This document shows, in pieces, positions 12,820 to 59,647 of a stretch of DNA of 64,000 nt; the first letter of the stretch is position 1; the number at the start of each line of letters is the position of its first letter. The notes beneath the pieces were generated by a model that was not told the DNA's origin, did not search any database, and worked only from the letters and a program-made list of their open reading frames with translations. The DNA is from Octopus vulgaris (Eukaryota), in assembly GCA_951406725.2 (NCBI GenBank), contig OX597826.1, positions 74,400,001 through 74,464,000 on the forward strand, read 5' to 3'. Both the position numbers and the translations under genes were made by a program.

Positions 12820-13030
12820 AACCACATGTGCATCGTTGGCGATTTTTTCCTTCGTCTTCATTTTCTATTGGACTTACCTTTGCTTCTGAAGAAGAGCTTT
12901 GCTCGAAACGTTAAACCATCTTTCTTTCCTTCCCTGATCGTCTACTAATACATTATATGTACCACGTCCCCATGTTGTTGTTTCTTTGTGTTTGTTCTTC
13001 GTTTTTTTTTGGGGGGGTGGGGAATTTACT
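12820..13030 (+). mobile_element. Hammerhead-bearing short element (diverged copy of subfamily A)
   Basis: GCTT-CTGAAGA-A-GAGC-TTT-GCTC-GAAA-CG-TT-AAAC at 12882-12916 (canonical core). Flanks match the other copies; ends in (TA)n. Confidence 0.75.
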
Positions 13031-14061
13031 ATATATATACATCTATATAACACACACATATATACACTATATATATATATATATATATATATATATATCC
13101 ATATAACACACACACACATAAATATGTATATGTGTATATATATATATGTGTCTGTATATATATATATATATATATATAATATGTAACCAATATTTGGTAG
13201 CCATGATAAAACTCCGAGTTATGGATGTCGGGGCGGAAACCCACGCCGGCATCTCTTCAGTTATCGGGCCATCAAAAAAAAAATGTATAAAAATAGAGAG
13301 AATAATTGTCACATATATTTACAGATAAATTCCTCTATTTACATAATATCGAGGTCTCTTCCATTCTTTTGTTGTCTGACCATTTCTATCTCTCTCTCTC
13401 TCTCTCTCTCTCTCTCTCTATATATATATATATATATATATATATATATAGATATATAGATAGATAGATAGATAGATAGATAGATAGATATGCTTGTGAT
13501 AGACTTTGATGGATAATAGTTCAAACTTTGACTTGAAACACAATTCTGTAGTATATATGTTTATTAGTAAGAAAAAGCCATATGGAGCTCTCTCTCTCTC
13601 TTTCTCTCTCTCTTTATTTCTCTCTCTCTTTATTTCTCTCTCTCTTTATTTCTCTCTCTCTCTTTCTCCCTCTTTCTCTCTATCGCACACACAGACACAA
13701 ACATGTGTGTGCTATCTTTATAAATGTTTTTTTATAAACCATAAAAAGAATTTAATTTATTAAAAGGAATGAAATCTTGTCTTTTACCATTTTAGAAATT
13801 TTTTTACAGTTCCTGGAAGTCTGTGATTAATACAAATGTAAACATGTCACCTTTTATTAGCTGAACATTTGCTATTTATCACAGACTGTGTATGACAAGG
13901 TTGTTAAGTAAAAAATAATATCTATTTCATGATCATATGGATTTCACACGCAAATAATATCTACAGAGAATGCGGATTAGAAGTTACGGGCGACTTGTAA
14001 CTTTTTAGTAATAAGAACTTGTTGGAACTTTTCAGTTAAGCAAAGCCTACCAAATCGTAAC

Positions 14062-14290
14062 TCATTGAAGTACGGAGTACATCTCAATCTGTACTGCATT
14101 GAAGTACGGAGTACACCTCAATCTGTACTGCAAAGCTTCAATACTGAAGCATTTCCTTCTTTCAAGCACCTCATCGTCACTCAAAAACATCTGTCTGAGA
14201 AATTGTTGATCAAAACTTTCCATAAGTTCTAAGTGCTTACGATACACAGTCCAGGCTTCGTAAGCATACAACAAAGAGGTTAATACAATA
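14062..14290 (-). pseudogene. RTE LINE C-terminal fragment
   Basis: LYAYEAWTVYRKHLELMESFDQQFLRQ; highly similar to 18165-18365; ends in a ~34-bp tandem duplication. Confidence 0.85.
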
Positions 14291-14526
14291 AAGAGGTTGA
14301 TGAAACCCCTTGTTACTGAAGAGCATTCCGTCTCTTAGTTTCTGAGTTTCCCGACGAATTTGGACAAGGCTATTATCGATGTTCGTTTTGTCGCTACTTT
14401 GTAAAGACAGAATGCCTTATATGGGCTGTTAGAAGTAGTTAAGTAAGTTACAAGTTGGCTGTAAGTTACAAGTTGTATAGAATGCGGTTCTTAATTTTGT
14501 CCATCGTTAATATTACAGATGAACTT

Positions 14527-14900
14527 AAGGCGGCGAGTTAGCAGAATCGTTACCGCGCAGGGCGAAATGTTTAATGGCATTTCGTCTGTCTTTACGTTCT
14601 GAGTTCAAATTCCACCGCGGTCAACTTTGTCTTTCATCTCTTTCGTAGTCGATAAAATAAGTACCAGTTGAGGTACTGGGATCAATGTAAACGACTTACC
14701 CATTCCCCTAAAATACTGGCCTTGTGCCAAAATTTGAAATCAATATTACAGATGACCTAGGTGGTGAGCCGCCAAGATTGTTTGCACACCGGACAAAACG
14801 TTTAGTAGCATTTCGTCCGTCTTTACTTCCTGTGTTCAAATTCCGCCAGGGTCGACTTCGCCTTTCATCCATTCGGGGTCGATAAAATAAGTACCAATCA
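14527..14900 (+). mobile_element. Two adjacent SINE family A copies
   Basis: Both heads present; AATATTA(C/G)AGATGA occurs before, between and after them. Confidence 0.85.
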
Positions 14901-56550: not shown

Positions 56551-57991
56551 TTTCCAATACTATATATACATATATATACATAATTACACTATTTATACTA
56601 TTTATACATATATATATATACATACATATACATACATAATTTTTTCGCTATCATCTATCTATCTATCTATCTATCTATCTATCTATCTATCTATCTATCT
56701 ATCTATCTATCTATCTATCTATCTATCTTTAGATATATACATACATGCATATACACATATATACATATCCATCCATATAAATATACATATATACACAAGT
56801 TTCTATCTCTTTTCCTTTCGTCCTCTCTTCGTCTCCTCGTCTTCCTTCTCTCTCCCTCTTTCTCTCTATTCATATATATATATATATATATATATATATA
56901 TATATATATATATACATATATATAAAATTCCCATTGGAGTACCAGACTTGCGGAAAAGGAATTTTATTACAGAAAAAAAGAAACGAGATAAAATTCAAAA
57001 AATACCTGTGGATTGGAACCGACTACCTTGCACATTGGAAGATTTACCGTTTACATTTTGTCACTTTATTTTAATCTGAAGCAAACCCCTCAAATGCACA
57101 TGGATACATGACACACCAGCATCATGCAAACACGAAAACACAAATGGTTGTACATGTTCAGAAGCAAAATAAACATAACAAACACACGTTTACACTTGCT
57201 TCGTATGTATTTACATATAGAGAGAGCTCCCGTGGCCTGGCGTGCAGGCTTCAAGCCTGTGGCTGACTGACACCAGACTGGTTCAGTTCCACCTTTCGGA
57301 CGACGGACACCAAGGGGTCCTATTTTCTTTCACCTGCGTCCGATTTTTATATATACAGTATATATATATATAATTGTATGTACATAGATATTTATTTACT
57401 CAGTAACTACAAAACAAAGTGTTTCCCAGCTGGAGCACTGCTAAAATAGATCGTTCAAATATACATATACACGGATATTAATATCTTTACTCATACCCAT
57501 ACATACACACAAAACACACACATATACACACATATATATATTTATCTGTATATGTATATATTTTCTCGTGAGATTTAAAGTCTAGGTGTATAGGTCCCTA
57601 GTTTTCTTTCCGGTCTCGTCCCAAGTGTGTTATGTCTATAGAAATTATAGATATACATAGGCATGCCCTGTTGTACACGTGCAGGTATGCATGAATCCCC
57701 TAATGCTGATATTAACCCCTAGACCGGCAAACACCTGTAGATATATACCCCATACACAACTACTATACGTTAATACTCATTTATCTACTCCCATTAACAA
57801 ATATAACCATACAGAAAATATTTAGCTCTCAAGCACCAATAAACACAGATACACATACACACACATTATATATATATATATATATATGCAGTAATATGCT
57901 TATTTAACACCTTGTGCACAGGTATATGTACAGGTGAACATACATGCTTCTGTAAGACGCATACTTCAAAGACAACAGTTTTAAAAAAACC

Positions 57992-58047
57992 ATGGAGGAA
58001 GAGGAAAATATAGATTCACCGAATTTAGAATACAAGGAACTTCAAAT
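57992..58047 (+). CDS. Candidate first coding exon of an unidentified host gene (MEEEENIDSPNLEYKELQ)
   Basis: AAAACCATGG Kozak context, 18 open codons plus 2 nt, then consensus donor GTAAGT at 58048. No downstream exon identified. Confidence 0.5.
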
Positions 58048-59440
58048 GTAAGTAGCAAATAAATATATGCATATATAAATACACACGCACCTACTCGTGT
58101 ATACATATATATATATATATATATATATATATATTTATACATACATACGTCATATATATAAATACATATTCTATATATATATATATATATATATATATAT
58201 ATATATATATATACTTACGTCATATATACATATATATATATATATATATACATATATGTATATATATATATATATATATATATATATATATATATATATA
58301 TATGACAGAAGATTGTATTACTTAATGCACATATGTTGACTGATAATATAGGTGCATGCTGTAATCTGAGAATATCTTGGCACAATGTGTGTGTGTGTGT
58401 GTGTGTGTGTTTATGTCTGTGTCTGTGTTTGTGTGTTTCTGTGTTTGTGTGTGTGTGTACATATATATATATATATATATTTACCTAAGCGTGCTTATAC
58501 ATATGCACACAGAAATTACTTTATTTTACATCGATTTCTACCATTTCAGCTCCCTCATCTATCTACCTATCTATCAATCTATCTATGCGTGTGACTGTGT
58601 GCGTGATTTTGTATATGGGTGTGTTTATATATATATATATATATATATATATATATATATATATATATATATATATATATATATGATGTATGTATGCATG
58701 TATATATATGTATATATATATATATATATATATATATATATATATATATATATATATATATATATATATATATATATATATATATATATATATATATATA
58801 TATATATATATTATATATATATATATATATATATATATATATATCACTAATTGTCTATCTCTCTATTCCACCCCTTCCTCTGTCTGCTGCTTTTATCTGT
58901 CTATTTTCATCTCGTTATTATGTATATTTATGCATACATGTATGGTATCTGTGTTTGTATGTGTGTGTGTGTGAGTATACATACATACATGCACACACAC
59001 ACACACACACGCACACACACACACACACACACACACACATATATATATATATATATGTATGTATGTATCTGTATTTCTCTGTGATTCTTCTCAAACACAC
59101 ACATAAAGACATGCGTGAATACAATCAGTGTTTGTATGAATACAGCTGTTGGCGCGCGTGCGTGCGTATATATCTGTCACTCACTCTGTGTCTCACTCGG
59201 ATTCTTACGTTGCTTTCAATGAAAAAAACGACAATATTTCTGTAGCACAAACACACTTCATTCATACCACATACACGCGCGCGTGCGCAAACGCATACAC
59301 GACAGGACGTCCTTCCAGCAAGTGTGTTTCTCTCTAGAAAAACTTAGCAATTTTATAAACATACAACTACAAACATGTATACTACCTGTCACATGTGTGT
59401 GAGTCCCTCAGTTTCTCTCACTCTCTCTATGTCTCTCGCT

Positions 59441-59647
59441 ACCTCGTGTGTACCGTTGGCGATTTGTTTTCCCTCTGTCTTCCCTTCTCTGGATCTTTCC
59501 TTCTCCTATGTTTCCGACGAAGAGCTCCGCTCGAAACGTTAAACCCTCCTTCTTTCCTTCTTTCCTGAGCGTCCAATAACACTATATTTGTTCCACGTCC
59601 TCGCGTTTTTGTGTTTTTATTTTGTGCTTTCTTGTTTGGATTAACTA
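59441..59647 (+). mobile_element. Hammerhead-bearing short element, subfamily A
   Basis: Motif at 59510-59544; ends TTGGATTAAC then a long (TA)n. Confidence 0.8.

Follow-up and report, generated by a model that had tools for sequence, protein, structure and literature searches.

The window analysed here is a 64,000-nucleotide (nt) stretch of the Octopus vulgaris genome (contig OX597826.1, positions 74,400,001 to 74,464,000 of the forward strand), and it contains nine hammerhead motifs. They are minimal type I hammerheads in the 5'-truncated tails (pseudo-long terminal repeats, pLTRs) of Penelope-like elements (PLEs). The tails appear to come from two sister PLE lineages, A/B and C. Sequence comparison suggests that the source elements of both lineages kept the hammerhead stems and most letters of the core while fixing either U4C or A6U. 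The likely product is a slowed ribozyme that would need dimer formation or the protein of the element to cut, a reading to which we give a probability of about 0.58. Its notable part is the A6U core, which seems to be under constraint in an intact, recently active PLE lineage.

Each motif consists of a stem I arm, a CNGNNGA core, one extra A, GAGC-loop-GCTC, GAAAC, GT, H and the other stem I arm. The extra A is located between positions 9 and 10.1, and helix III is loopless, like the published minimal hammerheads of PLEs. The structural traits of that class are present: helices I and II, the extra base after A9, G10.1-C11.1, and a palindromic, loopless helix III. Every motif lies within an element of 170–270 nt that has an AT-rich microsatellite at its end. 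A preliminary description had reported these nine motifs with the loops TTT, TCC, TCT, CTAG and GTTG and the triplets GUU, GUA and GUC, and positions, strands, loops, triplets and cores were all recovered. The CTAG loop differs from the usual GTAG of the family, and TCT is compatible with CpG decay of TCC. The statement that the triplet always stays NUH is correct for the nine window motifs and does not extend to the genome, where 512 of 37,321 matches have G17. The canonical core (C3 U4 G5 A6 N7 G8 A9) is seen in one of the nine motifs. That motif, at 12882, had been proposed as the canonical standard; its core is canonical indeed, and its stem I contains a C-A mismatch, which makes it a poor control for a cleavage comparison. 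Rfam at the gathering score finds no match in the window. With E up to 5, no hammerhead family is among the 150 of 331 matches listed, and microsatellite matches dominate.

In the 2.8-Gb genome (G000), the stem II/III pattern GAAGAGCN{3,4}GCTCGAAACGT has 37,321 exact matches and its reversed control has none, so the motifs are not chance. Three inner stem I pairs plus a CYGWN core are kept in 27,309 of the matches. The cores are CTGTN (A6U) in 18,967, CCGAN (U4C) in 9,310, canonical CTGAN in 5,112 and others in 3,932; thus A6U and U4C together account for 76%. These counts indicate that both changes are traits of source elements. The non-canonical cores had been described as natural variants, and this is borne out: they are lineage traits, not decay, as the genome counts and the presence of A6U in intact elements indicate. 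CpG decay is ruled out as the source of U4C: position 4 is C in 49 and T in 46 of 97 A/B copies, while the next G is changed to A in only three. A shifted register for lineage C, with the core UUGAAGA, is rejected by inspection because it breaks stems I and II and the four-way variable base lands at position 4.

U6 is found in all 55 motifs with young-family flanks in loci L151–L200 (overlapping loci kept). When 125 C copies are placed on a tree by their flank columns alone, U6 persists along a ladder of subfamilies, while N7 is any of the four bases and H17 is A, U or C. With A/B as the outgroup, the earliest branches are U6 copies, with three A6 copies nested inside, on a root that is weak given the long outgroup branch and the trait columns left in; whether the few A6 copies are reversions depends on this root. 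Two minor groups stand beside these lineages. G17 marks a small, older A/B subfamily with A-U at stem I pair 4 (a subset of L373–L389; L252, L260–L262, L291, L292). Loci L303, L306, L313 and L326 contain GGAC/GTCC or a similar stem II, with canonical or U4C cores and different flanks.

The parent elements of lineage C are intact. Walking upstream of genome copies led to locus L137, in which one strand contains the end of a PLE reverse transcriptase (RT), a Cx4CxxC linker, GIY-YIG, a pyrimidine-rich 3' untranslated region (UTR) of about 800 nt, a C-type hammerhead, (TA)n, and then a partial tandem copy. A genome search with the RT piece returned at least 150 matches of 94–100% identity, many in long open frames. 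At 20 loci with long open reading frames (ORFs), the hammerhead follows the ORF in 20 and also precedes it in 16, and U6 is present in all. Intact units are 4,438–4,573 bp (about 4.5 kb) long, encode RT and GIY-YIG, and have A6U in both pLTRs. Sixteen ORFs, from 19 loci examined, differ by 0.9% on average. Pfam detects RVT_1 above the cut-off (E 1.4e-7), and it finds no family in a 354-amino-acid (aa) piece of L137. Lineage C shows the characters of endonuclease-containing (EN+) PLEs: a PLE-type RT (DKG, YIDD) with a C-terminal GIY-YIG, partial tandem pLTRs and frequent 5' truncation. The linker, of the CX2-5CxxC type, suggests a placement with Neptune or Nematis.

For lineage A/B, decayed PLE coding sequence is found upstream on the same strand in three of 20 long loci, and its protein is 49–71% identical to that of lineage C. 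All three loci have canonical cores. For the young U4C B subfamily, the loci searched contained no intact ORF; this subfamily may be non-autonomous.

A different family was returned by the first GIY-YIG search and rejected as the parent. It is a PLE family with a 781-aa protein and a U3-A8 hammerhead. Where A/B or C motifs lie near ORFs of this type (L036, L038, L047, L125/L132), they are antisense and thus read as separate insertions. The family is a second young one (L051–L059, e.g., G000:C16:20834000-20843000 and C17:42761500-42770500). Its 781-aa frame encodes RT and GIY-YIG, and in several copies a separate open frame of 333–479 aa precedes it. The pLTRs in L052, L053 and L059 contain a hammerhead-like motif in which an ACAUGU palindrome accompanies the known U3-A8 core. 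In addition, inverted or nested pairs of pLTR copies lie close together at L019/L020, L011 and L188, as PLE insertions are described.

Constraint was examined in an alignment of 158 C and 135 A/B copies, each 120 nt or longer, out of 336 distinct copies. The tested set comprises 96 C and 97 A/B copies that were reached through flank patterns or upstream anchors, lie in the window, or were picked up as bystanders; four of its source regions were first found via the motif, and the first 20 Mb of a single contig (C1) supplied most of the copies. A variant is counted as shared if it is present in 8% or more of the copies. Rare changes are similarly frequent in motif and flank (0.023 vs. 0.034 in C; 0.023 vs. 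0.037 in A/B), a pattern that neutral decay after insertion would produce. Shared changes are distributed otherwise. With U4/C4 left out as a CpG site, they occupy 0 of 30 motif columns and 48 of 99 flank columns in lineage C. In a stricter test, in which CpG columns are dropped, only the 3' non-tract flank is used and U4/C4 is counted, the numbers are 0 of 25 motif and 13 of 40 flank columns for C (p = 0.001) and 3 of 48 and 23 of 67 for both lineages pooled (p = 0.0003). Within the 36-column block of lineage C, the only variable columns are N7, where all four bases occur, and H17 (A 71, T 18, C 4, G 1). In contigs of four public runs with four organism labels, differences in the motif at 10% or more likewise fall only on N7 and H17, and depth has a sharp peak over the motif. 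The preliminary description proposed selection on the ribozyme fold during propagation and cited covariation. That interpretation is partly supported: constraint, seen in the way shared variants avoid the motif in lineage C, speaks for selection, and the covariation cited does not.

The nine motifs form seven distinct rows, in which both partners change at one of 11 pairs. Of 500 shuffles, 261 reach this number of pairs and 33 reach the score. The switch of stem I from GTTT/AAAC to TCTTT/AAAGA, which was described as compensatory, amounts to a single flipped pair (G-C to C-G). No covariation is seen in the three inner U-A pairs, and five of the seven rows have a mismatch at the fifth pair. Stem II is fixed as GAGC/GCTC in all four pairs, as described, and provides no evidence of covariation. 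One covarying pair is not evidence by itself. Among genome copies, stem I pair 4 is GC in 75, GT in 34, AT in 12 and AC in 4 of 135 A/B copies, and mostly C-G in the 158 C copies. Other stem II sequences are seen in 1,323 genome matches; the 100 listed are mostly single changes of GAGC/GCTC, with a small group of GGAC/GTCC. In an alignment of 29 copies, both partners change in five of 10 pairs (4 of 500 shuffles do as well), and 95.5% are paired, versus 14–43% paired, with one to five such pairs, in slid controls. These rows were hand-picked to cover the subfamilies and the GGAC/GTCC group and extend to more distant families, and relatedness inflates covariation; because the rows are related and chosen, the result is supporting, not decisive. 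Minimal hammerheads of PLEs, their abundance, and "consensus families full of covariations" are already published (Cervera and De la Pena 2014, PMC4209133; review PMC6765202); covariation as such is ordinary.

The following cycle can be proposed. The RT and endonuclease of the element would insert copies at (TA)n by target-primed reverse transcription, mostly from uncut RNA. Two copies pairing through the ACGU palindrome would form helix III and bring about active cores, as in the model of PMC4209133, and the slowed ribozyme is predicted to cut as such a dimer or with the element's own protein. Selection would act only on source elements, and inserted copies would decay neutrally. The 5' ends of the copies are informative here. 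They lie 70–130 nt upstream of the cut site in 50 of 97 C copies and in 38 of 55 A/B copies, 14 of the latter at the end of the reference used. This accumulation could reflect a stall of RT, or else the start of transcription, in which case the upstream pLTR would be the template of the short inserts. Only rarely are 5' ends found at the cut site, which indicates that the templates were mostly uncut. This agrees with the anole element, whose hammerhead cuts only with added protein and whose catalytic mutants still insert (PMC11167929). Contigs from runs presumed to be RNA cover 5' UTR and ORF pieces and contain no splice-like joint; they bear neither way on transcription or cleavage.

Several facts weigh against a working ribozyme under selection. 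Folding predictions for the monomer pair U6 with A15.1 in an inactive structure (mean p 0.65 in 84 copies, vs. 0.00 in four A6 copies), and monomer motifs fold no better than shuffles (z −0.47 to 1.43). The bin from −6 to +5 around the cut site contains the 5' ends of only two of 97 C and one of 55 B copies, i.e., there is no accumulation. In a phage ribozyme, the A6C change at position 6 yields a rate of less than 0.1 per min (PMC3088659), and a mutational scan found low activity for further single mutants of the CUGA turn (PMC9901934). In vitro insertion of the anole element is not reduced by catalytic mutants (PMC11167929). The G17 subfamily multiplied, since eight of 20 sampled G17 loci have one common flank type. 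The stricter test for A/B alone is not significant (3 of 23 vs. 10 of 27 columns, p = 0.10), and two of its three motif changes concern the two partners of stem I pair 4. GIY-YIG, whose motif is visible, scores under the Pfam cut-off (17.1 vs. 22.6 bits, E 0.0069). Convergence of U4C and A6U on one inactive hairpin was also considered. It is rejected because the hairpin is predicted for A6U (p 0.65) and not for U4C (p 0.01), and because A6 and U6 leave similar energy gaps to the active dimer (8.2 vs. 9.3 kcal/mol).

From the low activity of position-6 mutants, the copies that extend across the cut site, the G17 subfamily and the predicted U6-A15.1 pairing, it can be speculated that the A6U lineage lost catalysis and kept the fold for a non-cutting job, such as docking of the element's protein, RNA pairing via ACGU, or an overlap with the promoter. 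Insertion without cleavage, possible in vitro, is consistent with this, and loop II is invariant in C as well (0 of four columns with shared variants), beyond the needs of simple catalysis. Against it, the free positions of the 36-column C block are exactly N7 and H17, those which hammerhead chemistry leaves free; the shared states of H17 in C are A, U and C; and G5, G8, A9, G12, A13 and A14 are fixed across subfamilies. We regard the loss of catalysis as possible and favor the slowed, assisted ribozyme under selection over it. On the basis of the predicted folds, one tentative version of the slowed ribozyme is that the A6U core was retained because it still cleaves in vivo, with the monomer held off by the U6-A15.1 pairing and switched on by dimerization or the element's protein. 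If true, the regulated A6U core would be a natural ribozyme core overlooked by standard descriptors, in about 19,000 copies.

Two further explanations are improbable. The conservation might come from common descent and motif-based detection, without any selection. The single covarying pair of the nine motifs, a detection profile seeded with exact motif matches, the result for A/B alone and the concentration of sampled copies at the start of contig C1 are in line with this. It is opposed by the copies taken mainly via flank patterns or as bystanders, in which rare-change rates are similar yet shared changes avoid the motif (0 in the motif vs. 58 in the flank in C). For C, where the result survives the removal of CpG columns and pyrimidine tracts, such an origin is already weakened. 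Even less probable is that the short copies are not PLE tails and represent an independent short interspersed nuclear element (SINE) or non-LTR retrozyme spreading via circular RNA. At most this fits the young U4C B subfamily, whose copies are about 180–240 nt long with clustered 5' ends, for which no intact ORF joined to a U4C copy was found, and which supplies three tandem copies at 51776–52358. These tandem units are separated by (TA)n and show no permutation at the cut site, C copies match intact PLEs, and A/B tails join PLE coding sequence. The units of metazoan non-LTR retrozymes (bioRxiv 10.64898/2026.07.22.740005) are likewise short and non-coding, contain a type I hammerhead and are related to PLE pLTRs. 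Retrozymes are defined as tandem arrays, whereas the copies here are mostly dispersed singles ending in (TA)n. The other six copies of the window are single.

The metazoan hammerheads of PMC4209133 share further features with those described here: location in pLTRs, a U-rich upstream region, a short helix I, the extra base between 9 and 10.1, G10.1-C11.1, a palindromic loopless 15.2–16.2, many covarying families, and copies mostly single and truncated. They differ in the core, as all 56 motifs of Fig. S3 there have U4 and A6 (CUGANGA or UUGANRA cores) under a descriptor that fixed the core. The part available lists no cephalopod, and its highest count is about 9,000 in Xenopus tropicalis, roughly a quarter of the 37,321 matches here. 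The parents resemble the Neptune/Nematis-type EN+ PLEs (Craig et al. 2021, PMC8557442) in the C-terminal GIY-YIG with CCHH-like residues, DKG, the CX2-5CxxC linker, partial tandem pLTRs and the bias to (TA)n. The octopus PLEs in the table of that paper are Naiads, with an N-terminal endonuclease and without a canonical hammerhead, unlike the elements here. In the Anolis Poseidon element PAc (PMC11167929), too, the hammerhead is in the pLTR, uncut RNA is the main insertion template and the target is AT-rich. The PAc hammerhead overlaps the start codon and has measured, protein-assisted activity, while in the octopus element some 770 nt separate the hammerhead from the likely start downstream of it.

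Among natural core variants (Perreault et al. 2011, PMC3088659), U4C is already known from a viroid, with low activity in vitro and sufficient activity in vivo, and A6C from a phage. Such variants are described there as rare, whereas in the octopus A6U predominates in a large lineage that was active recently. No natural A6U hammerhead was found in the literature covered, including PMC3088659 and the 56 motifs of Fig. S3; Lunse et al. 2017, on variants of PLE hammerheads, is outside this coverage and may contain A6U. A literature search on octopus hammerheads returned nothing relevant. The main text, as available, of a recent repeat annotation for octopus, which reports active Penelope families, contains neither "ribozyme" nor "hammerhead" (PMC13282606).

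The tail fragments and other features of the window are collected in Table 1. The copy with the canonical core (12804–13029) is 84.9% identical to locus L289 across 212 nt. The first C copy (38670–38940) is 93.9% identical to the 3' end of the intact element L183 over 278 nt, and the old C copy (51310–51478) is an early branch within the lineage C tree. The RT frames at 18234–19785 are, we assume, RTE-like, and the 184-bp unit appears to resemble a common cephalopod SINE. Loose CTGANGA...GAAA matches outside the nine motifs (61660–61686, 15966–15997, 51244–51275 and four minus-strand sites) are probably chance.

Table 1. PLE tail fragments and other features of the window.
Feature	Position	Strand	Details
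PLE tail fragment, A subfamily	12804–13029	+	Hammerhead 12882–12916; canonical core CTGAAGA; stem I C-A mismatch; (TA)n end
PLE tail fragment, B subfamily	20825–21027	−	Hammerhead 20957–20923; U4C core CCGACGA; H17 = A
PLE tail fragment, C lineage	38670–38940	+	Hammerhead 38806–38843; A6U core CTGTTGA; H17 = A; (TA)n end
PLE tail fragment, B subfamily	44873–45055	+	Hammerhead 44921–44955; U4C core
PLE tail fragment, old C subfamily	51310–51478	+	Hammerhead 51356–51393; A6U core CTGTCGA; H17 = C
Tandem B copy 1 of 3	51776–51972	+	Hammerhead 51845–51879; core TCGACGA (C3 changed to T)
Tandem B copy 2 of 3	51986–52165	+	Hammerhead 52028–52062; U4C core
Tandem B copy 3 of 3	52180–52358	+	Hammerhead 52222–52256; 5' start and loop variant as in copy 2
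PLE tail fragment, B subfamily	59441–59645	+	Hammerhead 59510–59544; U4C core; (TA)n end
GIY-YIG fragment of another PLE lineage	7078–7308	−	46% to the 781-aa family; canonical hammerhead not seen in the downstream tail
Broken LINE-type reverse transcriptase frames	18234–19785	−	
Arrays of a 184-bp unit (two)	34740–35226 and 45545–46025		
Assembly gap	about 48000–48100		100 N

In the one PLE tested in vitro, insertion did not require cleavage by the hammerhead. Here, one superfamily provides a natural series of canonical, U4C, A6U and G17 hammerheads, and a U3-A8 family stands apart from these; for A6U, the source elements are intact. Should A6U cleave, most PLE hammerheads in such genomes would be overlooked by any search with a fixed CUGANGA (86% of the matches here). 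If it does not cleave, the constraint points to a non-catalytic role of the fold.

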